From positions 2,682 to 66,681 of the forward strand of contig JAJCXS010000147.1 in NCBI GenBank assembly GCA_029263335.1: 64,000 bases of DNA, read 5' to 3'. The notes beneath the pieces are model-generated. The model was not told the DNA's origin. It did no database searches and was given only the letters and a program-made list of their open reading frames with translations. A program made the translations under genes and the position numbers. The DNA comes from Acidobacteriota bacterium. GTDB lineage: Bacteria > Acidobacteriota > UBA890 > WLXD01. Of this stretch, positions 1,789 to 52,552 are shown piece by piece (positions within the stretch are counted from its first letter, which is position 1; every line of letters starts with the position of its first letter).

Positions 1789-2097
1789 GTGAAGAGAATC
1801 TATGTAGGTAATTTGTCTTGGAGTACCTCTGACGAGGATCTCCGCGAGTTCTTCTCTCAGTTCGGAACCGTGCAGGACGCCACTGTCATCACGGACCGGG
1901 ACACGGGTCGCTCGCGTGGCTTCGGTTTTGTCGAGATGGAAGATGCCGACGGCGACAACGCCATCTCTGAAGCCAACGGCGCTTCGCTCGGCGGGCGCAA
2001 CCTGCGCGTCAACGAAGCTCAGCCCCGCGGCAGCAGCGGTGGCGGTGGCGGCGGCGGTCACCGTGGCGGTGGCGGCGGCGGCGGGGGTCGCTGGTAG
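1789..2097 (+). CDS. RRM-domain glycine-rich RNA-binding protein
   Basis: RNP2 (IYVGNLSW) and RNP1 (RGFGFVEM) motifs, followed by a Gly-rich tail (GGGGGGGHRGGGGGGGG). Confidence 0.85.
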   Translation: MKRIYVGNLSWSTSDEDLREFFSQFGTVQDATVITDRDTGRSRGFGFVEMEDADGDNAISEANGASLGGRNLRVNEAQPRGSSGGGGGGGHRGGGGGGGGRW

Positions 2098-2123
2098 CAC
2101 CAGTCCTCCAGTCAAGAGATATG

Positions 2124-2158
2124 GCGCGGGCAGCTGCTGAGCTGCCCGCGCTTTTCTT
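2124..2158 (+). terminator. Rho-independent terminator downstream of the RRM gene
   Basis: Perfect 11-bp GC-rich inverted repeat GCGCGGGCAGC / GCTGCCCGCGC with a 6-nt loop, followed by TTTTCTT. Confidence 0.65.
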
Positions 2159-2175: not shown

Positions 2176-3216
2176 CTAGCGCGTCCAGATCTGCGAGTTT
2201 GGGAAGAAGGCCAACCAACCCGACTCGTACGCCAGCACCGTCATGACCAGTTCGTCGGTGTTGTCGGTCGCCCACGCCGTGAGTCCCTCGGCGTCGAAAT
2301 GGATCGTCACCGCCTGCTCGTTCACCTGCAGTTGCAGGGGCGTGTCCGCCTGCTCGAGCTCGCGCAGGGGAAAGAACCGCGCCTCGTCGCCGAGTACCAG
2401 GCCCAGGCCCAGCGTGGAGACATCGTGTCCGGCTTCGCTGCTGCGCCGAGTGCCAGGCTCGAAATCCTGGTACACGTAGCGTCGCCCCTCGCGCTCCAGC
2501 ACCATTACCCGCGTGTCGGGATGCCGGCTGCGCCAGAACCCCCAAGTCGCCTGCAACGTGGGAATCGACTCCAGCGGTGTGCCTTCCATGGGCCCGCTGA
2601 TCGACTGGCCGGCGAGTTGTGACCAGACGCTGTCGGTCTCCCGGTCGACGATCAGCAGGTTGTTATCGACGAGGCCCTCGGCGAAGTCGAAGGTAAGTTC
2701 CTTGCCACCTTGACGACGGGCGTACACGACGCCCGAGCCAGTGATGGGTCACCAGGTGGGAGCGAGGGAGGTGTCGCCCACTACATCGTTCACAACCTCG
2801 ACGGCGGCCAGGTAGCGGATCGGGTAGGCCATCGGCTGGCCGTCGATCATCACTCCGAGTACCAGTTCGTCGTCTGCCAGGTCCGCCTCGTCGGCAGCGA
2901 TCGACGCCGGGTCCACCGGGACCTCTCGAACCCGCATCTCCATGAGCTCTGCGGGTGCTCCGGGGCGCGGCTGCACGTTGGCGCGCACCGTGCGGCCTTC
3001 TTCTTGTGGCGCCCCCGGCTGTGGTGAAGCTGCCGCCGGGGCGACCGCCATGATCGCGCCCAGCGTCACGAGAGCCATGAGCCAGGGACTAGGCCGAAGG
3101 GTGGACCTCATTACATCTCCCAATGCGGTAGGCGGCCCGTCAGCATGACGATCTCGGAGAGCCGAGAGCAGGCCGCAAACTCTACGTCTCGCGATCGAGG
3201 CCAGAGCATAGAGCAC
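2176..3216 (-). CDS. DUF3179-family secreted protein with an in-frame UGA at 2749-2751 (candidate selenocysteine; alternatively a pseudogene)
   Basis: The two track ORFs 2749..3216 and 2176..2727 are in the same frame. They are separated only by a TGA and six sense codons. Joined, they give a typical DUF3179 protein (…LVLGVMIDGQPMAYPIRYLAAVEVVNDVVGDTSLAPTW-[TGA]-PITGSGVVYAR…ELTFDFAEG…LLIVDRETDSVWSQ…). The TGA sits where the family has the first Cys of its conserved VT[YF]CPL[CT]G[ST] motif. Confidence 0.55.
2717..2735 (-). promoter_or_regulatory. Candidate SECIS-like hairpin 13 nt downstream of the in-frame UGA
   Basis: mRNA reads UGA-CCCAUCACUGGCU-CGGGCG-UCGUGUA-CGCCCG. That is a 6-bp all-GC stem with a 7-nt loop containing GU. 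Confidence 0.35.
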
Positions 3217-3354
3217 TCGTCGGCGCAGCTGCCAGCGGATGATTCGAACCGGTGTGGGCCAGGTGTCAACGAAACGACCTTCTCGCGAGTATTGCAGTAG
3301 GTAGATGCCCCGACCGAGGGCGTACCCAACCTACCTGCGAACCGGAGATTACGG

Positions 3355-3741
3355 ATGAAGACACTGCACCACGCCATGATGGGCGTCACGATGATCGCGA
3401 TCTTGGCGGCCGCCGCTGGCGTGATTCACCCGTGGGCCACGACTGCTGAGGCGCAACACAGCGCGAGCCGGCAACACGGCGAGGTCGATGACCCACAGGA
3501 GCACTTCGCCGCGCTGGCCGACATGCTCACGCTCACGGCAGCACAGCGCGAGGCGCTGCAGGCGCCGTTTGCGGAGGCCTTTGCGGCCATGCAGCAACTG
3601 CACCAGCTGCACGACGTGATCGCGGCTGAGCTGACCGATGAGCAAAGCGAGGTTTTCGGCAACATGATCCACAAGGCGATGGCCGAGCAGATGGGTCATC
3701 ACGAAGACCAGGCAGATCACCGAGGCCACAGTCACCCGTAG
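3355..3741 (+). CDS. Periplasmic LTXXQ-motif (Spy/CpxP-like) protein
   Basis: N-terminal signal-like hydrophobic segment. An LTxxQ motif is present (LTLTAAQREALQ). The protein is helical and Gln/His-rich, with a His-rich C-terminus. It lies immediately upstream of an ECF sigma gene. Confidence 0.5.
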   Translation: MKTLHHAMMGVTMIAILAAAAGVIHPWATTAEAQHSASRQHGEVDDPQEHFAALADMLTLTAAQREALQAPFAEAFAAMQQLHQLHDVIAAELTDEQSEVFGNMIHKAMAEQMGHHEDQADHRGHSHP

Positions 3742-3765: not shown

Positions 3766-4347
3766 TTGGCGTATGCTCCCCGGGACGAAGCCATGAAAGA
3801 TGAACAGAACCGGACCGATGAGGAGTTGGCGCGGGCAGCGAGGCGCGGCGACGCTGATGCCTACGATGTGCTCGTCCGGCGTTACCTGCGTCCGGCGATG
3901 GCACTCGCCTGGCAATACACGCGCCGGCTCGAGGATGCCGAGGACGTTGTCCAGGAGGGTTTCCACCGCGTCGTGCGGTCCCTGGCCGAGTACGACGACC
4001 GCCGTTCGTTCAGCCCGTGGTTCTACACGATTGTCCGCAACGTCGCTCGGACGGCGATCAGCAAGGATGGTCGGCGCGCCGCACTCGCTCCACTCACTCT
4101 CCTGGAAGACGAGCCGCCAGCCGCGACATCAGCCGATCCCGTGGCGGCCAGCGACGTGGCGCATGCCATCGACAATCTCGCCCCCATGCAACAGGCCTGC
4201 GTGCGGCTGTGCGACATGGAAGGGTTCACCAGCGGCGAGGCGGGCACGATGCTCGGCATCGGCGAGGCTACGGTGCGTACGCACCTGCACCGTGCGCGCA
4301 AACAGCTCAGGGTCGCGATGGCTACGCGACAGGGTATGCTCCCATGA
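3766..4347 (+). CDS. ECF-type RNA polymerase sigma-70 factor
   Basis: Sigma-70 region 2 (AYDVLVRRYLRPAMALAWQYTRRLEDAEDVVQEGF…FSPWFYTIVRNVA) and region 4 (QQACVRLCDMEGFTSGEAGTMLGIGEATVRTHLHRARKQLR). Confidence 0.85.
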   Translation: MAYAPRDEAMKDEQNRTDEELARAARRGDADAYDVLVRRYLRPAMALAWQYTRRLEDAEDVVQEGFHRVVRSLAEYDDRRSFSPWFYTIVRNVARTAISKDGRRAALAPLTLLEDEPPAATSADPVAASDVAHAIDNLAPMQQACVRLCDMEGFTSGEAGTMLGIGEATVRTHLHRARKQLRVAMATRQGMLP

Positions 4348-4703
4348 TGGCTGAGAATCCGGTCTCGAAGTTGCCCGAGGACCCCGCGTACTGGCGACGT
4401 TTGTCGCGGCAGATTAGCGATGACGCCGCGGCGCCCCTGGCGGCGTACGCCGGCGAACACGACGTCTGGTATGGGTCATTGGCCCGTAACGCGCCATGGG
4501 TCGTGGCAGCGTCCGCTGCGGCGATGCTGGTGCTCTGGTTCGCCCTGCCGACCACAGATTCTCCGCAGGTGGCTCGTTGGTTCGAGTCTTCGCTCGCACC
4601 AAACGAGATTGCTGGAACGCTCGTGGGTGGGCCGGTGCCGCCCAGCGTGGACGAACTGATGGCCCAGTTTCCTCCGGCGCTCGATGGCGAGGGCACGCGA
4701 TGA
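4345..4703 (+). CDS. Putative anti-sigma factor / small membrane protein
   Basis: ATG at 4345 overlaps the sigma stop (ATGA). The protein has one transmembrane segment (PWVVAASAAAMLVLWFALP). The track ORF 4017..4703 is the same frame extended upstream through the sigma gene. Confidence 0.45.
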
Positions 4704-5077
4704 GCGGCCCAGGCCTTCGCGCCGCGGCAGCACTGCTGTTCGTGTTCGCGGCCGGAGTTTTCGCCGGCATCTTTCTCGACAGACATCACCTGATGGCACC
4801 GGCGACGGATGCCACGCCGGCGCAGGAGCACGCGCGGGCTCTCGCCGATCTGCGGGAGTCTCTCGAGCTCGACGAGCACCAGATGGATCGGATCCATGCC
4901 ATTCTTGCCGACAATCAGCAGATCGTGCAGCAGATGTGGGAGCAACTTCGCCCCGAGGTGCAGACCGCGATGCGGCATGTACACGAAGAGATCGCCGAGC
5001 AGCTGCGTCCCGAGCAGATTGACCGGTTCCACGACTGGCTGAACCGACACGGGACCGGGCCCGGACCGACTCACTGA
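4700..5077 (+). CDS. Periplasmic Spy/CpxP-like (heavy-metal-resistance/LTXXQ-like) protein
   Basis: ATG at 4700 overlaps the previous stop. The protein has a signal/TM segment (AAAALLFVFAAGVFAGIF) and repeated helical, Q/E-rich blocks (DEHQMDRIHAILADNQQIVQQMWEQLRPEVQ…EQLRPEQIDRFHDWL). Confidence 0.45.
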   Translation: MSGPGLRAAAALLFVFAAGVFAGIFLDRHHLMAPATDATPAQEHARALADLRESLELDEHQMDRIHAILADNQQIVQQMWEQLRPEVQTAMRHVHEEIAEQLRPEQIDRFHDWLNRHGTGPGPTH

Positions 5078-5103: not shown

Positions 5104-7512
5104 ATGAACAACTTCAAAGCTGCCGCGAAATCGCTTCTTTCCACCCCGGGCCCGACGCTGGTGGTCATCGCGACCTTGGCCATCGCGATTGGTGCCAACA
5201 CCGCGATCTTCAGCGTCGTTAACGGTGTGCTATTACGCTCGCTCGGTTTCGGCGACGAGGGACAGCTGGTGGTGCTGTGGCAGACCAACGAGGCTCAGGG
5301 TCTGGAGAACTCGCGATTCTCGATGGGCGACTATCGCGACGTGCGTGAAAGCGCCGCGGCCTTCGATGGGCAGGTCGCGATCTACCGGTACGTCGGCTTC
5401 ACCATGACGGCGCTCGAGCGACCGGCGCGGGTCAGCTCGTTGGTCATTTCGCCGCGCGTTTTTCGCGTGTTGCAGGCCGGGCCCGAAGTCGGTCGAGTCT
5501 TCGATGAAGATGACGAGAAGCCTGGCAGCGAGAAACAGGTTGTCCTGACCCATGCGTCCTGGACGCGGCGTTTCGGCGCGGATCCGGAGATCGTCGGCAC
5601 GACCGTAGAACTGGACAGCGAGCCGTACACCGTAGTGGGCGTTAGCGAGGAGGGCTTCCATTTTCCGCCCGGCGACGACCAGGTGGAGATGTACACCCCG
5701 TTGACGCTCGACGACGGGATCCTGCTCGATCGAGCCCATCGCATGTTCGACACGGTGGCCCGTCTCAGCGACGGTGCCTCCGTCGCGGCGGCGAACGATG
5801 AGGTAAGCGCTATCGCGGAACGGCTCGACCGTGAGTTCAGCGACACCAATGAAGGCTGGGGAATGCGAGTTCGGCCGCTACGCGCGGAGGTCCTCGGCGA
5901 TGTCGCCGCGACGCTGTGGGTGCTTTCGGCCGCGGTGTTCCTCGTACTCCTCATCGCTTGCGCCAACATCGCCAACGTTCTGGTGGTTCGGTCCTCAGCC
6001 ACGGCGCGAGAGTTTGCGGTGCGTGCGGCAATGGGTGCCCGGGCCGCCGACCTGGCCAAGCGTTCGCTGGCCGAGAGTCTGTTGCTGGGGCTGTTCGGCG
6101 GCGGCGTCGGATTGTTGATAGCGCTGTGGGGCGTGGCCTTCCTGCGAGCGGTGATGCCGGCAGAGGTTCCACGCGGCGCGCAGATCAGTCTTGATGGCAC
6201 GGTACTCGTGTTCGCGGCCGCGCTGTCGATCGGAGCCAGCGTTCTGTTCGGCTTGCTGCCGGCGTTTCGCAGCATGTCGCCCAACCTCGCTGAACTGCTC
6301 AAGCCCGCCGGAGCTTCCGGAACCACCGTGGGAGGCGCTCGCCGGCTGCGCGAACTGATGGTGGTTGTCGAGGTTGCCCTGGCCATGGTGCTGCTCGTGG
6401 GTGCCGGGCTGATGGTGCGCAGTTTCGCGCGGCTGAACGAAGTTGACCCTGGCTTCCGACAGGATGGCGTCGTAGCGGTTGCCGTCGAGTTGCCCCGTTC
6501 GCGTTACCAAACGGACGAGCGACGGACCTTCTTCAAGCAGCTCGTAACGCGGGTGGCCGACTTGCCCGGCGTGAAGGGAGCGGGCGGTGTGTCGGATCTG
6601 CCAATGAGTGAGGTTGGCGTCGCTTTTGAAATGAGTTTCACCGTGCTCGGGTTGGACTCGCTCGCCCCGACGGCACGGCCGAACGCCGATTTCCGCGCCA
6701 TTCTTCCTGGCTATATCGAGGCGATGGGGATCGAGCTGATCCGGGGACGTTCCTTCGACATTCTCGATGGCGAGGACGATCGCAAGATCGCCTTGGTCAA
6801 CGAGACGTTGGTGGAGCGCTACTTCAAGGACATCGACCCGATAGGGCAGATGCTGCGCATGCCGATGGCCGGCGATCTGGAGATCGTCGGCGTGGTTTCT
6901 GACATCCGCCACGGTGGGCTGCAGTCGGAATTCGCTCCCGAACTGTTTATTCCATACGACCAGATATCCATGAGCGAGATGCACATTGTCGTGCACTCGG
7001 ACCTGGAGCCGGGGGCAGCGGCAGCGGCCGTGCGTGACGTGCTTGCCGACATGGATCCGCAGCTCGCACCCACGGCGGTCGTTGCCATCGCCGACCTTCT
7101 CTGGGAGTCCGTCGCCCAGCCGCGCTTCAACACCGCGTTATTGGTCGCGTTGGCTATCTGCGCGGCGGTACTGGCCAGCGTGGGCACCTACGGCATCGTC
7201 GCCTACACGGTCACCCAACGCACCGGCGAGATCGGTGTGCGCATGGCTCTGGGCGCGGATTCGAGCGCCACCGTTGCGATGATCGTGCGTCAGGCGCTCG
7301 GCATCGTCGTCCTGGGGGCGTTCGTGGGGCTGTTGGGGGCGTTCGGGGCGACGCGGTTCTTGACCCAGTTGCTCTTCGGTATCCGGCCAACGGATCCGCT
7401 CACCTACGGGCTGGTACTTGTCGTCGCGGTTGTTGTCGGCGGCGTGGCCGCCTGGATGCCCGCGCGTCGCGCCACTCGCATCGACCCGGTCTCGGCGCTC
7501 CGCGAAGACTAA
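5104..7512 (+). CDS. ABC-transporter permease, FtsX/MacB-like duplicated (ADOP family)
   Basis: 802 aa. It contains two FtsX-type 4-TM modules, each preceded by a large periplasmic domain. The N-terminus is TM1 (LVVIATLAIAIGANTAIFSVVNGVLLR), typical of MacB-like ADOP permeases. Confidence 0.85.
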   Translation: MNNFKAAAKSLLSTPGPTLVVIATLAIAIGANTAIFSVVNGVLLRSLGFGDEGQLVVLWQTNEAQGLENSRFSMGDYRDVRESAAAFDGQVAIYRYVGFTMTALERPARVSSLVISPRVFRVLQAGPEVGRVFDEDDEKPGSEKQVVLTHASWTRRFGADPEIVGTTVELDSEPYTVVGVSEEGFHFPPGDDQVEMYTPLTLDDGILLDRAHRMFDTVARLSDGASVAAANDEVSAIAERLDREFSDTNEGWGMRVRPLRAEVLGDVAATLWVLSAAVFLVLLIACANIANVLVVRSSATAREFAVRAAMGARAADLAKRSLAESLLLGLFGGGVGLLIALWGVAFLRAVMPAEVPRGAQISLDGTVLVFAAALSIGASVLFGLLPAFRSMSPNLAELLKPAGASGTTVGGARRLRELMVVVEVALAMVLLVGAGLMVRSFARLNEVDPGFRQDGVVAVAVELPRSRYQTDERRTFFKQLVTRVADLPGVKGAGGVSDLPMSEVGVAFEMSFTVLGLDSLAPTARPNADFRAILPGYIEAMGIELIRGRSFDILDGEDDRKIALVNETLVERYFKDIDPIGQMLRMPMAGDLEIVGVVSDIRHGGLQSEFAPELFIPYDQISMSEMHIVVHSDLEPGAAAAAVRDVLADMDPQLAPTAVVAIADLLWESVAQPRFNTALLVALAICAAVLASVGTYGIVAYTVTQRTGEIGVRMALGADSSATVAMIVRQALGIVVLGAFVGLLGAFGATRFLTQLLFGIRPTDPLTYGLVLVVAVVVGGVAAWMPARRATRIDPVSALRED

Positions 7513-8236: not shown

Positions 8237-10102
8237 TTAGCGCGCCCCTGCGCCATCGGCGCTCATCGGTGCCGTGGCAGTCCGAGGGCCGCGAAGGTGG
8301 TTGGTGGCGCATCGATAGCCGCCGTTGCGGATCACGCTAGAGGTCAACGGCGGTAGCAACCGCAGATCGATGTTGGCGGCACGGAATACTTCGATAGCCG
8401 CGGCATCGCCACGCGGGATGCCGCTGGCGAAGCTCTCTGCCCGGTGTCCGCCGTCCCAGGCCGAGATGACGACATTGTTCCAGCCGATCAGGAAGTCCTC
8501 GTGCTCCAGGTCGGGTTGGTCGGCAAGCATGCTGGTGGGCGCCAGTAGCACCGGGGCTCGCCGGACGAAGAACCCTGCGCTGTCGAGGTTATCCGCTACG
8601 CTATCCAGGAAAGCAGCCAGCTGCGAGGCGCGTTGCCCGCTCGATGTCTGGGTGAGACTGGCAAGGACATCCGTCGCAGCATCGATCCCGTAGGTTCGGC
8701 GGAGGGCCGAGATATCGTCTGCCGACAGGGCTTGCAGCAGCTCGTGGCCGCCATCGACGCTGGCCACGATCGCGCGCGGCGGCGACGTTGCATCCGCTGC
8801 GACGATCGTCACCAGCGAGTCCAGATCGAACCCGCCGCCGCCTGCCAGGCGCCACAGCGCTGCGCTCCGTTCCTCTGCGGTGCCGGAACGCGGTAGCGCG
8901 TGGACGAAGCGGGGCTGACGATCGAAGAGCTGCCCAAGCTGGGCCGCGGCCGCCTCCGCCGCGTCGAGATACGTGTCGATACCCTCCGCCGTGGAGAACG
9001 ACTCGACCGGCACACGGTCCAGACCCATGTGCTCGAGGATCGCCCACTCGAGCGAATGAACGCTTACCCATACATGATCTCGAGTGAGCAGAATCTGGCC
9101 GTTGTGAAAGGGTGTCGGCGAGGTCTGCCAGCGCGGTTCATGCCAGCGGGCATCGAGTTCGCTCGGCAATTGCGCCACCAGCAGGCGTCCGAGGCTGGAG
9201 TCGTCTTCGCGACCGAGCTGCTCGTTGGGTCGAACAATGACGCTGACGCCACCATCGCCACGGCGCGCGAGGATCATCGGATCGCGTGGCCATGGGCTAT
9301 AGCCGCGCCCCTGCGTCAAGAGCAGATGTGTACGGGGGGAACGCGTCGGCCTCAGGGACGCCGCCATGGCCTGATCGGCCATGACCAGAATGTCGCGCTC
9401 GGGCGCGATGCTCTCGAGGGCCTCCAGGAAGCGCTCGGCTTCGGTCGCACCGATGAACTGGGACGTCAGCACGAGCACCGTCGCGACAATCGGAAGGTCG
9501 CTGTCGATGACCAGATCGCTGCTGTGCGCGGGAGCAACGTAGCGGCTGGTGCTCGAACGCTCGATCAAGCCCCAGGCGGCCGCCACGGTTTCGGCGATCT
9601 CGAAGTCCACGCCGGTAATCCGATTCAGCCCCTCGAGCATCGCCTGGCGCAGGCCCGCCGTGAGAGTAACGTCGCTGCCCTGGCGCAGCAGCGCGACGAC
9701 CTGGTAGCGGAAGGCGACGTCTTCGACGAAAAGCCGGGGATTGACGAGCTGAACGGTCAGCAGGCGGTCCAGGTCGGTCTCCGTCCACGTGGCGCGGGCA
9801 TCGAGCTCGTGTGCCATGGCGCGAACCGTAGCTGAGAGGTAGGCGCCGAGGGCCGATTCGGGCCCGGTCTGCGCGAGTTCGCGACTCAACAGCACCAGCA
9901 CCGGTCCTGACCGGGGGCCCCACTCGAGCAGGTATGCCGACAGCTGTTGCGAGGTTACCTCGGTCATCACCGTTGCGGCCGTTGCAGATGCCGGCAGCCG
10001 GTCGACGGGCGACACGCTCGCCGCCGAAGCCCACGGCGGCGCCCCCATAGCTGTCGCTACGGAAAGTACCAAGAGGACCCTCGATGCGATGCTGAAAGAC
10101 AT
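8237..10102 (-). CDS. Secreted agmatine-deiminase/PAD-like protein (guanidino-group modifying enzyme superfamily), unusually large
   Basis: Signal peptide present. A WxRDxxP-like motif (YSPWPRDPMIL) and a C-terminal catalytic-Cys motif (NGGYRCATNHL) resemble agmatine deiminase and porphyromonas-type PAD. Confidence 0.5.
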   Translation of the reverse strand: MSFSIASRVLLVLSVATAMGAPPWASAASVSPVDRLPASATAATVMTEVTSQQLSAYLLEWGPRSGPVLVLLSRELAQTGPESALGAYLSATVRAMAHELDARATWTETDLDRLLTVQLVNPRLFVEDVAFRYQVVALLRQGSDVTLTAGLRQAMLEGLNRITGVDFEIAETVAAAWGLIERSSTSRYVAPAHSSDLVIDSDLPIVATVLVLTSQFIGATEAERFLEALESIAPERDILVMADQAMAASLRPTRSPRTHLLLTQGRGYSPWPRDPMILARRGDGGVSVIVRPNEQLGREDDSSLGRLLVAQLPSELDARWHEPRWQTSPTPFHNGQILLTRDHVWVSVHSLEWAILEHMGLDRVPVESFSTAEGIDTYLDAAEAAAAQLGQLFDRQPRFVHALPRSGTAEERSAALWRLAGGGGFDLDSLVTIVAADATSPPRAIVASVDGGHELLQALSADDISALRRTYGIDAATDVLASLTQTSSGQRASQLAAFLDSVADNLDSAGFFVRRAPVLLAPTSMLADQPDLEHEDFLIGWNNVVISAWDGGHRAESFASGIPRGDAAAIEVFRAANIDLRLLPPLTSSVIRNGGYRCATNHLRGPRTATAPMSADGAGAR

Positions 10103-10334
10103 GCTTTCGCGTCAGCGCCGTGCGCAAGGGGGGGTAGTGAAGTGGGCGAGAACCGGGGGTCTTGCGAGTTCTCACAATCACTGTAACAAGAGCGGGGGTG
10201 ACGATTCAGGGGCAAAAAGGACCCGGCGCAGGGGTTTCTTGGGGGGGAATGTAAAGAAACGTAAAGGTCCACTGAGAGTGCAACGAGTCGCTAGACTGTG
10301 CCCTTCGTAGAAGCCCTTTTTGTGGAGCCGACTC

Positions 10335-13300
10335 ATGCGCCATTCGTCTCGTCTTGTTGTTGCCGCGTTAGCGTTACTAGCCCTGGGTCTGCTGGTCGTC
10401 TGCCCTGGCGTGGTGTCCGCGCAGGTCGACGCTCGGATGTTGCGCTATGCGGACGTCTCCGCCACGCACATCGTCTTCGTTTACGCTGGCGACATCTGGG
10501 TGGCTGCCAAGGCGGGTGGGGTCGCGCAGCGGCTGAGCACGCCGACCGGCGAGGAACAGTTTCCGCGCTTCTCGCCGGATGGATCGCGCATTGCCTTCCA
10601 GGCGAACTACGACGGCAACGTCGACATCTATGTGGTGCCCACACTCGGTGGTCAGGTCGAGCGGTTGACCCATCATCCATTGCCCGATCGTATGCTCGAC
10701 TGGTATCCGGACGGCAACTCGATACTGATCGCCAGCTTCATGCAGACCGAGAAGATGCGCTATCGGAAGTTCTTCCGTATCGGCGCGAACGGCGGGCTGC
10801 CCGAACGGCTCCCCGTTCCCTATGGCGAGTTCGGCGCGCTCTCGCCCGACGGCGGCACGATTGCCTACATGCCCAAGAGCCGCGACTTCCGTACCTGGAA
10901 GCGCTACCGCGGTGGTACGGCGCCCGAGATCTGGTTGTTCGATCTGGACAGCTACGCGGCCACCAATATCACCCAGAACATGGCCAACGATGGCCACCCG
11001 ATGTGGCACGGCGACACACTGTATTTCCTGTCCGACCGCGGACCGCGCGAGCGCGCCAACATCTGGGCGTATGACCGCATTGCCGGTACGAGCAGACAGG
11101 TGACGCAGTTCACCGACTTCGACGTGCGGTTTCCGGCGATTGGCCCGCAAGACCTGGTCTTCGAGGCCGGCGGCCGGCTCTACCTTCTCGATCTCGCCAG
11201 CGAGCAAATGAATGAGGTGCAGATCGAAGTAGTAACGGATCGCTCTACCTTGAAGCCGTACTCCGAGCGCGTGGGAGGGCAGCTCGCCAGCGCGGGGATC
11301 TCGCCCAGCGGTGCGCGGGCAGTGATCGAGGCCCGCGGCGAGATGTTCTCGGTGCCGGCCGAGAAAGGCATCGTGCGCAACCTCTCGCGCAGCTCCGGCT
11401 TCGCGGAGCGCTGGCCGCAGTGGTCGCCCGACGGGCGTTGGATCGCTTACTTCAGCGACGAGACCGGCGAGTACGAACTGACCGTCCGTGCGGCCGACGG
11501 CAGCGGCGAGCCGCAGCGGCTCACAACCCTGGGCGAAGGCTTCCGTTACACACCGTACTGGTCGCCCGATAGCAAGAAGCTGGCCTTCATCGACCAGGCC
11601 ATGCAGATCTGGATCCACGATCGCGATGCCGGCACGACCACGAAGATCGATGAGGGGCTCTACCTGTATCACGGTGGCCTCGCCAACTTCGAGCCGGACT
11701 GGTCGTCGGACAGCAACTGGCTCGCCTACTCGCGCGGTCTGCCGAATCGGCATAACGCGGTGTTTCTCTACGACACCTCCGGCGGCGAACGCCACCAGGT
11801 GACGAGTGGCTTCTATAGCGAGGCGTCGCCGCGTTTCGATCCGGAGGGCGAGTATCTGTACGTGCTCACCAACCGCGATCTTTCGCCCAGCTACAGCGAC
11901 ACCGACAGCACGTTCATCTACGCCAACACGACGAACGTGGCGGCGGTTGCCCTGCGCAACGATGTCCCCTCGCCGTTGGCCCCGGAGAGCGACGAGGAGC
12001 AGGTCGCGGACGACGCGGAAGGCGATGCGGACGATGAGAATGACGCCGACGGCAATAGCGATGCCGACGCCGACGCCGACGCCGATGCCGACGCCGATAC
12101 CGACGAAGACAAGGGCCTGCGAATTGATCTCGAGGACTTCGAACGCCGTCTGGTCGTGTTGCCCGTCGCCGCCGGTAACTACGCCGGGCTCGATGCCGTA
12201 TCGGGCAAGGTGATCTATCACCGTGCTCCGCGTACCGGGGCCGATGGGGGCGACAGTCCGATCCTGTTCTGGGACCTTGGCGAGCGCGAGGAGAAGACGA
12301 TCATCGGTGATGCCGGTGGCTTCGCCGTTGCCGCCAGCGGCAAGAAGATGCTCGTGCAGAGTGGGCCGCGGCTCGGCATCATTTCGGTCGCGCCGGGGCA
12401 GAAGCTCAGCGCTGCGCTGGACCTGGCCTCGCTCGAAATGGTCATCGAACCAGCCGCCGAGTGGCGGCAGATCTTCAACGATGCCTGGCGGCTGTTTCGC
12501 GACTACTTCTACGTCGCCAATATGCATGGCACCGACTGGCAGAACATCGGCGAGCGCTACAGCGAACTGCTCGATGACGTGGTCACTCGATGGGATCTCG
12601 ACTTCCTCATCGGCGAGCTGATCGGCGAGCTGAACGCCGGCCACACCTACAACCGCAGCGGCGATACGGAGCAAGCAGCGCAGCGCAACGTGGGCATGCT
12701 CGGCGTCGACTTCGAATTGAACGACGGCGCCTTCCGGATCGCTCGGATTCTCGACGGCGCGGCATGGGACAGCGAGGTGCGCTCGCCGCTTGCGCTGCCG
12801 GGCGTGAACGTCTCGGAGGGAGACTACCTGCTGGCGGTCAATGGAGTGCCGCTCGACACCGGGCGAGATCCCTGGGCCGCTTTTCAGGGTCTGGCCGGCG
12901 ACGTGGTGGAGCTCACGGTGAGCGACACGCCATCGATGGAGGGGGCCCGCAGGGTCCTCGTGGAGCCGCTGGGCAGCGAGGTGCGCCTGCGTAACCTGGC
13001 CTGGATCGAGGCCAACAGGCAACGCGTCGACGATGCCACCGACGGCCGCGTCGGTTACGTCTACGTTCCGGATACCGGCACTGGTGGACAGACCGAGTTG
13101 ATGCGGCAGTGGGCCAATCAGATCGACAAGGAAGCACTGATCATCGACGAGCGCTTCAATAACGGTGGTCAGATTCCGGATCGGTTCATCGAGATGCTCG
13201 ACCGGCCTCTGTACAGTTACTGGGGCGTGCGCGACGGCGATGATTGGCAGTGGCCCCCGGTGGCTCAGATCGGTCCCAAGGTCATGCTCATCAACGGTTG

Positions 13301-13652
13301 GAGCGGATCGGGCGGTGACGCATTCCCGTTCTTCTTCCGACACGCGGGCCTCGGGCCGCTCATTGGCACCCGCACCTGGGGCGGGCTCATCGGTTACACG
13401 GGGGCACCCTCGCTGGTGGACGGAGGCGGACTCGCCATCCCGACCTTCGGCATCTACTCGCTCGAGGGTGAGTGGATCATCGAGGGCTATGGCGTCGATC
13501 CCGACATCGAGGTCGTCGACAATCCCACCGACCTGGCGAACGGCATCGATCCACAGATCGAAGCCGGGATCACCGAGATCCTACGTCTGCTCGAAGAGAA
13601 CCCGCCAACGCGCCCGGCTCGACCGGCTGCACCGGATCGTTCCCAACGCTAG
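10335..13652 (+). CDS. Tricorn protease homolog (S41-family, beta-propeller + PDZ + C-terminal peptidase)
   Basis: Signal peptide. Characteristic N-terminal block (…SATHIVFVYAGDIWVAAKAGG…RLT..TGEEQFPRFSPDGSRIAFQANYDGNVDIYVV), a PDZ region and a C-terminal S41 domain (…NGWSGSGGDAFPFFFRH…GTRTWGG). There is an acidic low-complexity insertion (DADGNSDADADADADADADTDED). Confidence 0.85.
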   Translation: MRHSSRLVVAALALLALGLLVVCPGVVSAQVDARMLRYADVSATHIVFVYAGDIWVAAKAGGVAQRLSTPTGEEQFPRFSPDGSRIAFQANYDGNVDIYVVPTLGGQVERLTHHPLPDRMLDWYPDGNSILIASFMQTEKMRYRKFFRIGANGGLPERLPVPYGEFGALSPDGGTIAYMPKSRDFRTWKRYRGGTAPEIWLFDLDSYAATNITQNMANDGHPMWHGDTLYFLSDRGPRERANIWAYDRIAGTSRQVTQFTDFDVRFPAIGPQDLVFEAGGRLYLLDLASEQMNEVQIEVVTDRSTLKPYSERVGGQLASAGISPSGARAVIEARGEMFSVPAEKGIVRNLSRSSGFAERWPQWSPDGRWIAYFSDETGEYELTVRAADGSGEPQRLTTLGEGFRYTPYWSPDSKKLAFIDQAMQIWIHDRDAGTTTKIDEGLYLYHGGLANFEPDWSSDSNWLAYSRGLPNRHNAVFLYDTSGGERHQVTSGFYSEASPRFDPEGEYLYVLTNRDLSPSYSDTDSTFIYANTTNVAAVALRNDVPSPLAPESDEEQVADDAEGDADDENDADGNSDADADADADADADTDEDKGLRIDLEDFERRLVVLPVAAGNYAGLDAVSGKVIYHRAPRTGADGGDSPILFWDLGEREEKTIIGDAGGFAVAASGKKMLVQSGPRLGIISVAPGQKLSAALDLASLEMVIEPAAEWRQIFNDAWRLFRDYFYVANMHGTDWQNIGERYSELLDDVVTRWDLDFLIGELIGELNAGHTYNRSGDTEQAAQRNVGMLGVDFELNDGAFRIARILDGAAWDSEVRSPLALPGVNVSEGDYLLAVNGVPLDTGRDPWAAFQGLAGDVVELTVSDTPSMEGARRVLVEPLGSEVRLRNLAWIEANRQRVDDATDGRVGYVYVPDTGTGGQTELMRQWANQIDKEALIIDERFNNGGQIPDRFIEMLDRPLYSYWGVRDGDDWQWPPVAQIGPKVMLINGWSGSGGDAFPFFFRHAGLGPLIGTRTWGGLIGYTGAPSLVDGGGLAIPTFGIYSLEGEWIIEGYGVDPDIEVVDNPTDLANGIDPQIEAGITEILRLLEENPPTRPARPAAPDRSQR

Positions 13653-14053: not shown

Positions 14054-16753
14054 TCAATCCGTTCGTAGCGACTCAACCGGGTCGATGGTGATCGCGCGTC
14101 GTGCCGGGACCAGACTCGCGGTCAGAGCGACCAAGGCCAGCACGGTGGCGGCGCCGATGTAGGTCGGGATGTCGGTGGCGCTAACGTCGTAGAGCAGCGA
14201 GGCGATCAAGCGGCTCGCCGCCGCGGCGATCGCCAGACCGACAACGATACCGGCTCCGACCCAGACCATGCCCTGGCCCACGACCCAGCGAGCCACGTCG
14301 GTGCCGCGGGCGCCGAGCGCCATACGGATGCCGATTTCACGGCTGCGCTGGGCCACCGAATTGGCGACGACGCCGTAGATCCCGATCGCGGCGAGTGTCA
14401 GCGCGAGGCCAGCGAACAAAGCCACCAGCATGGCGGAGAAACGGGGTTCGGAAACAGAGGCGTTGACCAACCCGTCGAGGGTCACGACATTCTCGATGGT
14501 CTGATCGGGGTTCACCGCCCAGATCGCATGGTTCACTGCGGCCTGGAGCCCTGTGGGCTCGGTACTCGTGCGGACCACCAGCGTCATGCCGGAGCGGGTG
14601 ATCTGCTGGACGGATGTGTAGAGAACGTTGACCACCTCTTCGTCGAGGCTCGACTGAGTCACGTTGCCGACGACACCGATGATGGCGACTTCGCCGTTGC
14701 CTACGCCCAGCCGGCTACCTACGGCGTCGCCGTCGGGGAAGTGCCGGTCGGCCATCGCCTGGTTGATGATTCCGCGCAGTTCGCCGGCCTCGCGGTTGTC
14801 GCGCTCGTCGAAGCCGCGGCCGGCCATCAGCGGAATCCCCATGGCGGCAAAAGCGTCATCGGAGGCCCAGCGTAGATATGCCGTGGGCCATTGACCTTCC
14901 GGTGGTGCCGGATTGCCCACAACCATGAAGTCGAGGTCCTCGCCCTGGAAAGTGTCCGGGGTGAGTGGCATCGGTCGAATGAGCCCGGCGATCTCGACGC
15001 CGGGTACGTCGCGGACACTTTGCAGGATGTCGCCAAAGAACTGGCTGATGTCTGCGGAGCCTTCGAGCTTGTACCCCGGTGCCGAGACCTTCATGGCGAC
15101 GGTGTGGTCGCCATCGAAACCGGGCTCGACCTGGAGCAGCTCGTTCAAGCTGCGCAGTAGCAGACCGGCTCCGATCACGAGAACAACGACCATCGCTACC
15201 TCGGCGACAATCAAGAGGCCGCGCATGCGGACCCGCCCCTCGGTCTGGGAGCCGCTGCCGCCGGCCAGTTTGAGTTCGCTCTGCAGGTCGCCGCGCCAGG
15301 CGCGCCAGGCCGGCGCGAGGCCGAACATCAGCCCGGTGAGAAGCGAAGCCCCGAGCGAGAACGCGACGACCGCGGGATCGATGCCGACCTCCGCCAGACG
15401 GGGAACCTCGTCAGGTGCCGCAGCGACCAGCAGCTTGATCGACAGGCTACCGAGTAGAAGACCTGCGCAGCCGCCGATGGCGGCAAGGAGTGCCGACTCC
15501 GTGAGGAGTTGGCGGGCCAGTCGTCCTCGGCCCGCCCCCAGCGCCGCGCGCACTGCGAATTCGCGAGTCCGGCCCTGGGCCCGGACCAGCATCAGGTTGG
15601 CGACGTTGGCACAGCAGATCAGCAGCACGACGCCGACCGCGCCGAGCAGAGTGAGCAGGCCAGTGCGGGCGTCACCCGTCACCTGATCGTGCAGCGGCAC
15701 GATGCGCACCTCGGTGAGTTCGTCGTTGCTGTCTGGGTACTCCGCGGCGAGGCGCTTGGCGACCGTATCCAGATCGGCCTGCGCCGCCTCCATGGTCACT
15801 CCCGGTGCCAGTCGACCGACGGCATGGAGGAAGCGCACCCCGCGCCGCCGCGGTACTCCGCTCTCGGGTATGACCGATAGCGGTACCCAGAGTTCGCCCT
15901 CCGCGGACGGATAGTCGAAGGTCGCCGGCATGACACCGATCACGATGTAGGGCGTGTCACTGAGCGTGATCGTGGAACCAACGATCGCCGCGTCGCCGGC
16001 GAAGCGCGTCTGCCACGTACCGTAGGAAAGCACTGCGACGGCGTTGTCGCCTTCCGCATGGTCCGCCACGACGATCGGGCGACCGAGAAGCGGCGCGACC
16101 GCTAGGGTCTCGAAGAATCCTTCCTCGACGAAGTGGGCCAGTACGCGGTCGGGCCGGTCATCGCCTGTCAGCACGAAGCCTCCCATTGAAACAGCCGGGA
16201 AGGCGGTCATCTGCGAGAAGGACTCGCCTTGATCGCGCCAGTCGCGAAAATCGTGCGGCGATACCGTGCCGCGCACACTGTCGCGCACAGGATAGGCCGA
16301 GTAGATGCGCACCAGTTGCTCGGCGTCCGGATAGGGTAGCGGCCGCAGGAGCACAGCGTTGACCATGCTGAAGATCGCGGCGTTGGCACCGATGCCGAGC
16401 GCGATGGTGAGGATCGCGGCGAGCGCAAACACGGGACTCTTGAGCAGCGACCGGAAACCGTAGCGAATGTCTTGCAGGATCGATACGAACATTTCAACAG
16501 GTCCGAGTCGGGGAGATTCGGGGTTGGGCAGCGGCGCACGGCGCAGCGGCCGAGCGTCGCGAGAAAGGGCTAGACGAAGGGCTTGCGCCCAGTACCAGAG
16601 CGCGGTCGCAAGTCGCGAATGTAGCCTGCACCGCTCAGCGAACTCCTCGCGCAGATCGCCGACGACGAAACTGCCAACGCCGGAGGCGGCGAGCCGTCGC
16701 CGCAGCCAGCGCTCGACGAGGCGCGGTGGGGAAGGAATCGAATCGCTGGACAC
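14054..16753 (-). CDS. ADOP-family FtsX-like duplicated ABC permease with N-terminal 'permease prefix' domain
   Basis: 899 aa. N-terminal cytoplasmic prefix (…[32 protein letters not shown]), then two FtsX modules with large periplasmic loops. Confidence 0.85.
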
Positions 16754-18058: not shown

Positions 18059-20656
18059 TCAGTCGGCTCGCAGCACGGTAGCGGGATCGACGTGCGCGGC
18101 CCGCGCTCCGGGAATCAACGTGGCGGCAGCCGCCACGGCCACGAACGCGAGGAACACACCGGTATAGATAAAGGGATCGAGCGGATTCATGCGCCCGAGC
18201 GCGACCCCGAGGAGGGGGCTGAAGCCTGCGCTCAGGACGAAGCCGATCACCAGGCCAGGGGCGACGGCGCGCAAACCGGTCCGCGTGACGAAGCGCAGCA
18301 CCGATCGTCGATCGGCGCCGAGTGCCTTGCGAACACCGATCTCCGGCAAGCGTCGCTGCACCTCGAACGCCAGGGCTCCATACAGGCCGATCAGGGCGAC
18401 CAGCGCGGTGCTCACGCCTCCGAGCATCGCGAGGACTCCACCGGTCTGATAGATCCGTCCGATGTAGTTGATCAAATCCCTGATTCGAGTGGTGTCGGTT
18501 CCACCGAACGACCCGGTGACCCCGAGGTCCGGGTCGATTTCAGCGATCGCGGCACGCACCGACGCGGTGGCCATTTCCGGGCCGGTGAAGAGAAGATGGA
18601 AGTTGGTCGGCTCGACCGCTCCGAAGGGGAGATAGACACGTGCCAGTTCGCGCGCGCGGGCGCCCCGGTAGACGGACAGATCGGCAGTAACACCGACGAT
18701 CCGGACCCAGCGATCGCCTCCGGTGGCCGGCAGCCGGACCCGCTGGCCGACCGCGCTCCGCCCGTTCAGGTAGGTGTTCACGAAGCTGCTGTTGACCACT
18801 GCGACGAGCTCGTCGGAGGTCGAGGTGGCCCGTGGCAGCCCCACTCCGGCAATGGTCTGCAAGCCAAACAGGTCGAAGTAGCCCTCGTCTGCCACGATCA
18901 CACGCACAAGCGGCGGGCGGGCGGCGGGGTCCGGTTCGGCGCCTTCGATCTCGAGGCGATCGACAGAATTTTCGAGCCCGGGCACAACGTTCACGAAGAT
19001 CAGCGTTCCGACATCCGCATTGTCGCGCAGGCCGGCGCTGAGCGCTCCGCGGAGAGCGCGGCGCCCGGCCGGCTGCGCGTAGCGTGGTCCGTCCAGCGCG
19101 ACGCTCAGCAGATACACGTCGTCGGCGCGCAGATCGGCCGCTGACTGTGACCGCAGCAGGGCCCCTCCCATGAGGCTCGCGATGATCAAGGCAAGGGCGG
19201 ATATTGTTACCTGGGCATTGAGCAGTACGCCCGAGAGGCGCCCGCGGCGTCCGCCAACCACCGCCGTCGCATCGGATCGCAGCACCTCGCTCAGGTCGGC
19301 GCCGCGCAGACGGATGGCGGGCAGCAGTCCGGAAAGCGTCCCGGCAACAACCGCGAGTCCCAGGGTGAAGAACACCACGGATGGTTCGAACTGGACCCTC
19401 ATCCAGTAGTAGCCCCAATGGCCCGACAGAGTCGACTGTATGTAGTCGATCGCAGCGGTTGCCAAGCCGAGTCCGACGACGGCTCCGGCGAGTGAAATCA
19501 CCAGTGCCTCCACCAGCATCTGGAGGAAGACCTGGGAGGGGCCGGCGCCGATGGCGGCGTGCACGGCAAGTAGATCAGCGCGCGCCAGGGCGCGCCCGAG
19601 CAACAGGTTCGAGACATTCGAGCATGAGACCAACACCAGCGCGATGACCAGGACGAGCATGGTCGCCAAGATCATCTTCTCGCCGCCCTCGCCACGCTTT
19701 TCGGTGAAGCGGGGTACTTCCACCCGCAACCCCGGGGCGCCCTCGTCGTCGGCGTAGCGTCGTGCCTCCAGCAGGCTCCTGACTTCCTCGCTCGCTCGGG
19801 TCGGCGTGGCGGCGGGCGCCAGCCGTCCGACCATCTCGAAGTTGTTGCCTGGAGTTGAAGGATCGAGCAGCGCCCATAGGTCGTGATTGAAGGGGAATCG
19901 ATGACCTGCCGGCATGACGCCGACGATTACGCGCACGGCGCCGTCGACTCGAACCTCCTTGCCGACGACACCGCGGTCAGCCGCGAAGTGATCGCGCCAC
20001 AGGTCGTCGCTGATCACGATCCCGGTAAGCTCATCGTCCGCCGTTGGGAGACGACCCAGTTGTGGCATCTCGCCGAGCAACTCGAAGACCTGCGCGGTCA
20101 TCGCCACGCTTGGTACCCGAACCGGGTAGCCACGAGCGGCGCGAACGCTGGCGCTGCCGGTCGTCACGGCGCCCAGTTGGGCGAACGACTGGGTCGCGGA
20201 ACGCACGCTCTCGAGATCTACGATGTCGAGCGCGACGCCGCGACCCCGCTCGTCGAGCACACGGACCCAGCGCACGTCTTTACCGTCCGCAACGGGAAGC
20301 GGACGGCTGAAGCCGGCGTAGGTCCCATAGATCGCCGCGGCAGCGCCGAACCCCAGCCCCAGCGTGATGGCGGCGAGCACCGGCACGCCCGGTTGCCGAC
20401 GGATATTGCGCACCGTCAAGACCAGCGCCAGAAAGGGTTTCAACCCGCGGCCGCGATAGCGAAGGTCTCGAAGTTCGTACAGACCGACCGTCAAGACCTC
20501 TCGGTATGTCCACCAATCTACGCGCAGCCTCCCGCTCCCCGTCGCCCGGCGGCGTCCAGCCTCGTCGGCGATGTCTTGCAGGGCCTCATCAACATGCCGA
20601 CAGCCGCAGACGGACAGATACACGCGAGCGCAACGTCGGGCGAGTGAAGGCCGCAT
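18059..20656 (-). CDS. ADOP-family FtsX-like duplicated ABC permease with prefix domain
   Basis: 865 aa. N-terminal prefix (…DIADEAGRRRATGSGRLRVDWWTYREVLTVGLYELRD), then two FtsX modules. Confidence 0.85.
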   Translation of the reverse strand: MRPSLARRCARVYLSVCGCRHVDEALQDIADEAGRRRATGSGRLRVDWWTYREVLTVGLYELRDLRYRGRGLKPFLALVLTVRNIRRQPGVPVLAAITLGLGFGAAAAIYGTYAGFSRPLPVADGKDVRWVRVLDERGRGVALDIVDLESVRSATQSFAQLGAVTTGSASVRAARGYPVRVPSVAMTAQVFELLGEMPQLGRLPTADDELTGIVISDDLWRDHFAADRGVVGKEVRVDGAVRVIVGVMPAGHRFPFNHDLWALLDPSTPGNNFEMVGRLAPAATPTRASEEVRSLLEARRYADDEGAPGLRVEVPRFTEKRGEGGEKMILATMLVLVIALVLVSCSNVSNLLLGRALARADLLAVHAAIGAGPSQVFLQMLVEALVISLAGAVVGLGLATAAIDYIQSTLSGHWGYYWMRVQFEPSVVFFTLGLAVVAGTLSGLLPAIRLRGADLSEVLRSDATAVVGGRRGRLSGVLLNAQVTISALALIIASLMGGALLRSQSAADLRADDVYLLSVALDGPRYAQPAGRRALRGALSAGLRDNADVGTLIFVNVVPGLENSVDRLEIEGAEPDPAARPPLVRVIVADEGYFDLFGLQTIAGVGLPRATSTSDELVAVVNSSFVNTYLNGRSAVGQRVRLPATGGDRWVRIVGVTADLSVYRGARARELARVYLPFGAVEPTNFHLLFTGPEMATASVRAAIAEIDPDLGVTGSFGGTDTTRIRDLINYIGRIYQTGGVLAMLGGVSTALVALIGLYGALAFEVQRRLPEIGVRKALGADRRSVLRFVTRTGLRAVAPGLVIGFVLSAGFSPLLGVALGRMNPLDPFIYTGVFLAFVAVAAAATLIPGARAAHVDPATVLRAD

Positions 20657-20854
20657 CAGGGGGTCCTGTTGATCGTGGATGGGCGGGCTCTCGTTGGTTT
20701 CTGTACATCGTACACTAACTGTCGATGAAAGACTCGGTCGACGTGCGAGGTGGGGTTGCGGAAGATGTGGGGTATGGTGCGGCGCGACGCCAGCAGCCGG
20801 ACAGTTTGGGATAGAGTGCGACGGTTCGTGTCCATTCCTTCTCGCCGAGAGCCC

Positions 20855-22252
20855 ATGACTTCTCGCCCGTGCCCGATCTCGAGCCGCTCGATCGCTGTAG
20901 TGACTCTGGCGGCTGCGATGTTGGCCGGATGTTCGGCCCCGGCCGACGTTGAACGACAGTCAGAGTCGACGCCCTACATGGAGGCGGCATTGCAGGCCGC
21001 GACCTGGATACGAGCGCAGGAGGTTCGGTCGCCTTCCGGGTCGGCGTGGCCGGCCGATCCCTACGACACCGCCACCGTCGTGACCAATCTCTACACCGGC
21101 ACTCCGGGGGTGGTCCTCTTCTTCCTCGAGCTCTATCACCACACCGGCGACAGCAGCTATCTCGCCGATGCCGCGGCGGGCGCCGACTATCTGATGGCGC
21201 GCTTCGCTGGTGGCAGGCCCGGCGAGGGCGACACCGGGACCGTCGACGCGACGACACAGACGGCAGGCTTTTACACCGGCGTCGCCGGCATCGCGTTCGT
21301 ACTGCACGAGACCTTCAAAGCCACGGGTGATAACCGGTACCGCGCAGGCGCCATGGAGGCGGTCGACCGCGTTCATCAGCAAGCCCGCGAGCGTGAAGAG
21401 GGCGTCGACTGGATCGACTCCACCGACATCGTCAGCGGCACCGCCGGCACCGGCCTGTTCCTGCTGTACGCGGCACGTGAGATGGGACATGCCGAGTCGC
21501 TCCAGTTGGCCGAACGAGCCGGGTGGCGTTTGCTCGAACAGGCCGAGGAGGCGGGCGCGGGAATGCGGTGGCGCATCAACGCGGAGTATCCGCGCGTGAT
21601 GCCCAACTTCTCGCACGGCACGGCTGGAGTGGCCTATTTCCTGGCGGCGCTGCACCAGGCCACGGGTGAGTCGGCGTTTCTCGACGCGGCCATCTCGGGC
21701 GCCAATCAGCTGCTCGAACTTGCCGAGACCGAGGGCGACGTGTGTTTGATCTTCCATCACTCGCCGGACGGCGAGGGGCTGCAATACCTGAGCTGGTGCC
21801 ACGGCCCCGCTGGCACGGCACGTACCTTCTACAAGCTGTTCCAAGTCACTGGCGATCCAGTGTGGATGCAATGGACCGACAGGTCGGCCAACGGCATTCA
21901 CCAAAGTGGCATTCCCGACCAGCTCACCGAGGGATTCTGGAACAACGTCGGTCAGTGCTGCGGCTCCGCGGGCGTCGCCGAGTTCTCGCTCGCGATGCAT
22001 CGAACAACCGGAGCGCCCCGCCACCTCGAGTTCGCCCGCCAGGTTGCCGACAACCTGCGCGGCCGCGCAACCGCGGACGCCGGCGGGCTCATGTGGATCC
22101 AGGCCGAGAACCGTATCCAGCCCGAGTTCCTGGTGGCCCAGACCGGGTACATGCAGGGAGCTGCCGGCATCGGCATCCTGCTGCTGCATCTCGACGCCGC
22201 AATCCGGGGTAGCGATTACAGCGGCATCGTCTTTCCAGACGCGCCCTACTGA
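20855..22252 (+). CDS. LanC-like (lanthionine-synthetase-C-like) lipoprotein
   Basis: Lipoprotein signal (AAAMLAGCSAP). alpha/alpha-toroid GxxG repeats, plus Cys/His motifs in LanC-like arrangement (NFSHGTAGV, SWCHGPAGT, GQCCGSAG). No LanB/LanM-type dehydratase nearby. Confidence 0.65.
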   Translation: MTSRPCPISSRSIAVVTLAAAMLAGCSAPADVERQSESTPYMEAALQAATWIRAQEVRSPSGSAWPADPYDTATVVTNLYTGTPGVVLFFLELYHHTGDSSYLADAAAGADYLMARFAGGRPGEGDTGTVDATTQTAGFYTGVAGIAFVLHETFKATGDNRYRAGAMEAVDRVHQQAREREEGVDWIDSTDIVSGTAGTGLFLLYAAREMGHAESLQLAERAGWRLLEQAEEAGAGMRWRINAEYPRVMPNFSHGTAGVAYFLAALHQATGESAFLDAAISGANQLLELAETEGDVCLIFHHSPDGEGLQYLSWCHGPAGTARTFYKLFQVTGDPVWMQWTDRSANGIHQSGIPDQLTEGFWNNVGQCCGSAGVAEFSLAMHRTTGAPRHLEFARQVADNLRGRATADAGGLMWIQAENRIQPEFLVAQTGYMQGAAGIGILLLHLDAAIRGSDYSGIVFPDAPY

Positions 22253-39561: not shown

Positions 39562-40017
39562 GTGTCGCGCATGAGCGATCAACACGACAGCAAGAACGAC
39601 TTGTCGCATTTGACCGAAACGCAGCGCCGAGTCACTCAGGATAGCGGCACCGAACCGCCTTTCGACAACGAGTTCTGGGACAACCATGAACCGGGGATCT
39701 ATGTCGACATCGTGAGCGGGGAGCCGCTGTTCGCGTCGACGCACAAGTACGATTCCGGCTGTGGCTGGCCGAGCTTCACCGCCGCGCTGACCGCGGACCA
39801 TGTCAACGAGCTTACGGATGATAGTCACGGCATGGTGCGCACCGAGGTGCGTTCGACGACGGCCGACTCGCACCTCGGTCACGTGTTCGAAGATGGGCCC
39901 GGGCCGACGGGGCTACGCTACTGCATTAACTCGGCCGCTCTCCGGTTCGTTCCGCTGGATGATCTCGAGAGCGAGGGCTTCGGCGAGTACCTGCACCTCT
40001 TCAAGTCAAAGAGCTAG
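39562..40017 (+). CDS. msrB: Peptide-methionine (R)-S-oxide reductase MsrB
   Basis: MsrB signature GCGWPSF, catalytic RYCINSAAL, and HLGHVF. Confidence 0.9.
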
Positions 40018-44660: not shown

Positions 44661-44870
44661 GCCCCCTCCTTTTCCGCATCATGGCTCAGAGCCTCAGCTG
44701 CAGCGCGGCGGCTCCCTCTAGTAGGAACTGCGAAGGCTCTGGATTTCCGAATTGTTCGGAGTGTTTAGCGCCGCCGGCTTCGGGCTCATGTTGTCCATCC
44801 GGCGCTGTTGCGATGAAGCCGCTACCGGAGACGAAGGATCGGACTCTCGAATGAGCCGGCCGCGCTGGTT

Positions 44871-46571: not shown

Positions 46572-46694
46572 GGTTCCAGGAGTGACTGAGTGAGCCGGTC
46601 GGCGAGACTGCCGCGTGACAAGAGCGCCACGTGCCCTCCGAATGTTTGAGTGCTAGCAACCGCGCAGAGGATCTGCAACGTTTGTGGTCGGGCC

Positions 46695-52515: not shown

Positions 52516-52552
52516 GAGGGCGGTGTCCTGGGCCAGGCTAGACGATAGGGCC
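52478..52552 (-). tRNA. tRNA-Glu (anticodon CUC)
   Basis: Hand-folded cloverleaf. Acceptor GGCCCUA/UAGGGCU (G1·U72), anticodon stem CCGCC/GGCGG with loop CUCUCAA (anticodon CUC), T-arm ACGGG-UUCAAAU-CCCGU, discriminator A. CC is encoded but not the terminal A. Confidence 0.7.

Follow-up and report, generated by a model that had tools for sequence, protein, structure and literature searches.

A DUF3179 (PF11376) gene with a predicted selenocysteine codon and a conserved candidate SECIS hairpin in an Acidobacteriota-like genome

Results

Organization of the DUF3179 gene and its surroundings

The stretch of DNA that was analysed (64 kb, referred to here as the window) belongs to an Acidobacteriota-like MAG and carries on its minus strand two open reading frames, 2749..3216 and 2176..2727, that lie in one frame and are parted only by a TGA at 2751-2749. 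Translated from 3111 to 2176, the frame comprises 311 codons, one of them an internal stop with the surroundings ...DTSLAPTW*PITGSGVVYARRQGG..., the joined translation reading ...LAPTW*PITGSGVVYAR... across the stop; the TGA is thus the sole interruption of a shared frame, as had been read from the sequence originally. When the stop was replaced by Cys, the joined product matched PF11376 with 151.5 bits (cut-off 27; E = 4.4e-44) over residues 69-285, a span that includes the stop, and its assignment to the DUF3179 family therefore holds. No NCBIfam model matched the protein. Public annotation splits the gene into ORFs of 120 and 183 amino acids, and in public gene calls both halves are separately annotated as PF11376.

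Translation, the Pfam match, alignment with Cys homologues and dN/dS indicate a complete gene running from ATG 3111 to TAG 2178-2176 (2176..3111, minus strand), with 311 codons including a predicted Sec121. ATG 3111 is the likely start codon because a GGGAG with a putative Shine–Dalgarno role (3117..3121, minus strand; read from the sequence) lies 5 nt upstream and the N-terminus that follows resembles a signal peptide; it was preferred to GTG 3216, which is merely the mechanical start of the ORF. The signal peptide, MRSTLRPSPWLMALVTLGAIMAVAPAAAS (3025..3111, minus strand), is predicted by eye from sequence features and implies that the product would be exported. Bacteroidota homologues of DUF3179 have N-termini of the lipoprotein type.

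On its 3' side the DUF3179 gene is separated by a bidirectional terminator-like, GC-rich hairpin (2123..2152; stems of 12–13 bp, on both strands) from a convergent gene for an RRM protein (1789-2097, plus strand). On its 5' side, a divergent intergenic region of 243 bp (3112..3354), in which no match to a sigma-70-type promoter was found, separates it from an operon (3355 onward, plus strand) encoding a small exported protein, an ECF sigma factor and a MacB-type permease. The gene had been described in the original prediction as divergently paired with an envelope-stress-like ECF sigma operon. The divergent arrangement is real, but a functional link between DUF3179 and an ECF envelope-stress operon was rejected, as the gene order, in which DUF3179 stands between the RRM protein and an oppositely oriented set (small exported protein, ECF sigma factor, two small proteins, MacB-type permease), is common only to the window and its closest relative, L003. 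The pairing is therefore a feature of the lineage and not a functional clue. No conserved neighbour gene was found among the Sec-type loci or across 78 public loci, and since conserved genomic partners are lacking, the locus gives no new handle on DUF3179 function.

The small proteins flanking the ECF sigma gene (3766-4347), encoded at 3355-3741, 4344-4703 and 4700-5077 (all plus strand), matched no Pfam or NCBIfam family. In the product of 3355-3741 the N-terminus is signal-peptide-like and the C-terminus is rich in His, and by eye the small proteins look like a periplasmic sensor of stress or metal of the CpxP/Spy kind.

The in-frame TGA occupies a conserved Cys column

A search across 5.8 billion proteins returned 191 homologues. 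Cys stands at the UGA column in 12 of 12 full-length homologues, within the motif TWCPL[TSV]G[TS], where the present gene reads T-W-U-P-I-T-G-S if the UGA (2749..2751, minus strand) is taken as Sec121. Approximately 100 of the best 120 of these 191 homologues are C-terminal fragments of 175–199 amino acids (56–59% of the query), protein P0001 among them, that start at (M/V)YARR, i.e. at the GUG in the loop of the hairpin described below. Such a number of 3' fragments indicates that gene callers have split the same gene in many genomes, halting at the UGA and restarting just after it. A protein of a different kind, P0085 (214 amino acids; source contig 524 kb), has the N-terminal part of DUF3179 joined directly to the last ~95 residues and lacks both the Sec/Cys motif and the middle of the protein; either a deletion or a faulty assembly may account for it.

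The column was also read in DNA, using a scan in which each GTDB species was represented by one genome and which yielded 78 public loci. Across 86 tblastn segments (these loci and the gene's own copies), the column was TGA in 43 and Cys in 40, i.e. one or the other in 83 of 86; the remaining three were short, secondary and outside the motif. Trp was never found at the column, the aligned residue in these segments always being Cys where it was not TGA, and the motif of the wider family, [VL][TA][YF]-C-[PT]-L-[CT]-G-[ST], was present among them. The placement of the UGA on a conserved Cys column, proposed from the one sequence, is thereby confirmed.

Reading the DNA across the 78 loci gave 36–37 distinct orthologous sequences with TGA at the column, and orthologues sharing both the TGA and a downstream hairpin, for which the original prediction had called for a search, do exist. 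The carriers span six or more phyla or classes and include Acidobacteriota (Vicinamibacterales, 'Marinacidobacterales' and Terriglobia), Krumholzibacteriia, Planctomycetota, Polyangiaceae, KSB1 and Chloroflexota; TGC or TGT was found at the column in Bacteroidota, Arenicellales and various Proteobacteria. Distant paralogues also have TGA at this position: L066 (W-U-P-I-C), L079 (F-U-P-L-C) and second copies in L021 and L069. The second, divergent paralogue on L021, a Planctomycetota contig (6847-7239, minus strand), carries its TGA at the Cys column in the context YW-U-PLMQ and has a hairpin of its own. On the Acidobacteriota contig L014, a Cys-type paralogue (VTYCPLTGTG) lies divergently beside a Sec-type gene (9251-9670, minus strand, and 10001-10855, plus strand), so that a single genome naturally holds paralogues of both kinds.

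The one internal stop, in a gene that public annotation divides into ORFs of 120 and 183 amino acids, could also have arisen by nonsense mutation or through a mistake in assembly or base calling, which would make the gene a pseudogene or an artefact. The identical TGA is however present in two contigs from separate sequencing runs (L001 and L002), both of which match the window, and it recurs at the same column in the 36–37 orthologues from several phyla. By comparison with five orthologues, dN/dS was 0.05–0.25 over the 45 codons before the TGA and 0.10–0.27 over the 74 codons after it, so that both sides are under purifying selection; the conservation of the downstream hairpin at synonymous sites (below) also speaks against a chance lesion. 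A TGA shared across runs and orthologues, with low dN/dS on either side, excludes a pseudogene or sequencing error for practical purposes, and we regard this as the least probable of the explanations considered here, with next to no weight left to it. The earlier judgement that a decayed pseudogene was an unlikely reading is borne out by the same data.

A candidate SECIS hairpin under constraint at synonymous sites

A hairpin of the SECIS type (CGGGCGU-CGUGU-ACGCCCG; 2717..2735, minus strand) starts 13 nt after the UGA, with a predicted folding energy of -11.3 kcal/mol when folded alone. The all-GC stem of 6 bp that had been noted at this position (CGGGCG/CGCCCG) is present, and a closing U-A pair extends it to 7 bp and leaves a loop of 5 nt, CGUGU, that contains G and U. 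Among 36 distinct Sec-type sequences, pairing of the seven stem positions holds in 98% of cells, with near-invariant nucleotides. Among sequences keeping the same amino acid, the entropy of the third codon position was 0.19–0.63 bits at codons +5 to +10 (S-G-V-V-Y-A), which is the exact span of the hairpin, by comparison with mostly 1.2–1.9 bits at flanking four-fold-degenerate codons. A constraint at the RNA level thus overlies the coding constraint at the hairpin, as expected of a bacterial SECIS.

Covariation within the main clade was weak, with L036 alone showing a double change (G-C to A-U) and a result equalled by 23–26 of 500 shuffles; as the hairpin hardly varies, this test has little power, so that it is conservation, not covariation, that supports the hairpin. 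Compared with shuffled sequence, the 81-nt region showed no significant gain in folding (z = -1.1). In distant Sec forms the stems are different, namely CCGGUC/GACCGG in L066, GGGAGC/GCUCCC in the second copy of L021 and GACUG/CAGUC in the second copy of L069, each beginning 13–14 nt after its own UGA and each with G and U in its loop. Cys forms are without a comparable hairpin (mean -3.8 versus -13.1 kcal/mol in Sec forms), a contrast that is confounded by G+C content since the Cys forms come from genomes of lower G+C.

The arrangement is like that of E. coli fdhF-type SECIS/SelB recoding in that the stem-loop lies immediately 3' of the UGA and inside the coding sequence, and in that the apical loop, which includes G and U, begins ~20 nt downstream of the UGA. 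It is unlike the fdhF element in its short stem of 7 bp, almost all G-C and of unrelated sequence, with no bulged U evident. Models of the bSECISearch type place the apical loop ~16–37 nt from the UGA and include a conserved G in the loop, and the DUF3179 hairpin fits such a model. Its position close to the UGA on the 3' side, the G in its apical loop and the suppression of synonymous variation strongly support the hairpin as a candidate SECIS.

The same evidence bears on whether the UGA could be a true stop, either dividing the gene into two polypeptides (120 amino acids, and 183 amino acids from GTG 2727) or allowing low-level near-cognate read-through with Trp or Cys and without Sec. The stop is in a UGA-C context, and UGA-C is a leaky stop context; a GTG is also available eight codons downstream. 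That GTG (2725..2727, minus strand; the start of ORF 2176..2727 and of the database fragments) nevertheless lies in the apical loop of the conserved hairpin, with no Shine–Dalgarno sequence seen before it by eye, and the 183-residue 3' fragment called from it appears to be spurious. Read-through with Trp is at odds with homologues in which the aligned residue is always Cys and never Trp, and a nucleotide constraint such as that on the hairpin is expected under SelB binding. Adding the structural and tRNA evidence given below, we consider a true stop or Sec-free read-through to be very improbable, and selenocysteine at the UGA to be the preferred reading.

Structural context of the Sec/Cys position

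A profile search of the PDB with the DUF3179 family found no related solved structure. An AlphaFold model was made of a Cys homologue, P0005 (52% identical; pLDDT 86, pTM 0.81). The model is almost all beta, and the Cys is at the end of a strand (127-134) that is followed by a tight turn and a further strand (139-144). On this model, splitting the gene at the UGA would break one compact domain, a further argument against translation as two polypeptides.

The P0005 model shows weak similarity to a Rieske-like fold when compared with Rieske [2Fe-2S] domains (naphthalene dioxygenase ferredoxin, 2qpz, and the NirD-like 3c0d). The CxH...CxxH cluster ligands are absent and there is no Pfam Rieske match, so a Rieske [2Fe-2S] protein was rejected; at most, the model would suggest a Rieske-like fold. 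hhalign gave no similarity to E. coli HcaC or NirD, and Foldseek found no significant match to the P0005 model in the PDB. A thiol/selenol oxidoreductase with CxxC or UxxC on a thioredoxin fold was likewise considered and rejected, as the protein does not have this combination of motif and fold.

Selenocysteine machinery and other features of the window

None of selA, selB, selD or the gene for tRNA-Sec was found within the 64-kb window: SelA, SelB and SelD had no Pfam match among 38 ORFs scanned along it, tblastn with the E. coli SelA, SelB and SelD proteins found no match, either here or across related loci totalling 1.19 Mb, and the tRNA content of the window is tRNA-Glu alone. For a genome of several megabases this absence carries little weight. 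It fits a true stop, and also a lineage that has recently lost Sec decoding, in which the gene would be an intact relic that is no longer fully translated. A tRNA-Sec gene was however identified near an orthologue, on the Planctomycetota MAG contig L021 (132-227, plus strand), ~4.3 kb from the Sec-type DUF3179 gene there (ARAGORN; Rfam RF01852, 69.5 bits), which counts against a true stop. As for a relic, the closest relative (L003, 81% identity) keeps both the TGA and the hairpin, with dN/dS of 0.05–0.10, and the gene in the window has no lesions other than the TGA; we therefore think a recent loss of Sec decoding about as improbable as a true stop. A PLP enzyme beside the L021 tRNA-Sec was examined as a possible SelA and rejected, being a PhnW-like aminotransferase.

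A scan of the window for other genes with an in-frame TGA gave no further selenoprotein candidate. A same-frame TGA junction at 38058 was rejected as a Sec gene, since it consists of two adjacent genes, the stop of a glycosyltransferase being followed directly by an ATG. The window also encodes an MsrB (39562-40017, plus strand; TIGR00357, 196 bits) as an uninterrupted ORF of 151 amino acids with the Pfam 'SelR' domain, which despite its name is not part of the Sec machinery.

Several other genes of the window were recorded. A full-length OvoA gene (22405-24519, plus strand), for the 5-histidylcysteine sulfoxide synthase of ovothiol biosynthesis (TIGR04344, 679 bits; TIGR04345, 323 bits), lies directly downstream of a gene for a LanC-like protein (20750-22252, plus strand), and its presence would point to ovothiol synthesis in this Acidobacteriota-like MAG. 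Four large genes for permeases of the MacB_PCD/FtsX type (5104-7512, 14054-16753, 18059-20656 and 40014-42953) occur within the 64 kb; expansions of such permeases are common in Acidobacteriota. A tricorn-protease-like gene (10320-13652, plus strand) encodes 1110 amino acids with PD40, Tricorn_C1, PDZ_Tricorn and Peptidase_S41 domains. A large serine recombinase gene (51319-52515, plus strand; Resolvase and Recombinase domains) abuts the window's only tRNA gene, tRNA-Glu(CTC) (52476-52552, minus strand), a junction that may mark where an integrated element ends; just upstream of the recombinase are several large ORFs with no Pfam match (43917-50336).

Discussion

We conclude that the in-frame TGA is very probably a genuine selenocysteine codon in an intact DUF3179 selenoprotein gene, a reading that draws on comparative sequence evidence. 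The original prediction of a UGA encoding Sec with a SECIS downstream is upheld by the at least 36 distinct orthologues with TGA, by selection on both sides of the codon, by the frozen synonymous sites of the hairpin and by the tRNA-Sec on L021. The proposed mechanism is that the UGA at 2751-2749 would be recoded, with the hairpin at 2735-2717 acting as a bacterial SECIS that brings SelB-GTP-Sec-tRNA(Sec) to the ribosome stalled at the UGA, such that Sec would be inserted in place of termination; in this organism we infer that the insertion is SelB-dependent. The product would be a protein of ~311 amino acids with a signal peptide and with Sec in U-P-I-T at the place where homologues have Cys (CxxC/T/S/V). 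On the analogy of Cys/Sec pairs elsewhere, the Sec residue probably forms the reactive centre of an extracytoplasmic site, of either redox or metal(loid)-binding type.

The suggestion that DUF3179 is a novel selenoprotein family does not stand, as the family is already catalogued. A 'DUF3179 domain-containing protein' (PF11376; motif UxxC/T; one Sec) is included in a list of prokaryotic selenoproteins (PMC9312934, 2022), with MBW1804167.1 as the example and with credit to the Olavius symbiont study of Zhang and Gladyshev (2007; PMC1976440). The DUF name is not used in PMC1976440, where the family presumably stands under an older label. A 2026 review (PMC13188914) also lists the DUF3179 selenoprotein (PF11376; UxxC/T; one Sec), with MDJ0986319.1 as the example. 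Acidobacteria are mentioned neither in that review nor in an ISME J 2016 paper. In the literature we found no experimental Se incorporation for DUF3179 proteins, and the family rests on computational prediction.

The present gene encodes a PF11376 protein with one predicted Sec, and its W-U-P-I-T-G is the UxxT form of the listed UxxC/T motif. In Pfam family, position of the Sec motif, number of Sec residues, downstream SECIS-like hairpin and existence of Cys homologues it is like the listed selenoprotein, and nothing essential differs. What marks this copy is its place in an Acidobacteriota-like MAG, its membership of a clade with a near-invariant hairpin and the sequence PLTGSGVVYAR, and its division in two by public gene calls. 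The gene is therefore a further, unannotated copy of a catalogued selenoprotein family and not a new discovery; what could be new is at most the function and the fold.

On that point we put forward, as a speculation that we ourselves think improbable, that the UxxT clade may be a selenoenzyme located outside the cytoplasm and widespread among sediment and marine Acidobacteriota and the organisms neighbouring them, with a Rieske-like beta fold and a lone Sec at the place of the cluster-binding loop. If this were true, the Sec of the UxxT clade would take part in catalysis or metal(loid) binding of a kind so far undescribed among selenoproteins.

For annotation, the finding means that this gene and ~100 of the best 120 homologous entries are split in public calls, the UGA having been read as a stop and the GUG of the SECIS loop taken as a new start. 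The locus adds a clean, highly conserved example of a predicted SECIS, and recognition of the gene marks the host lineage as a probable user of selenocysteine.
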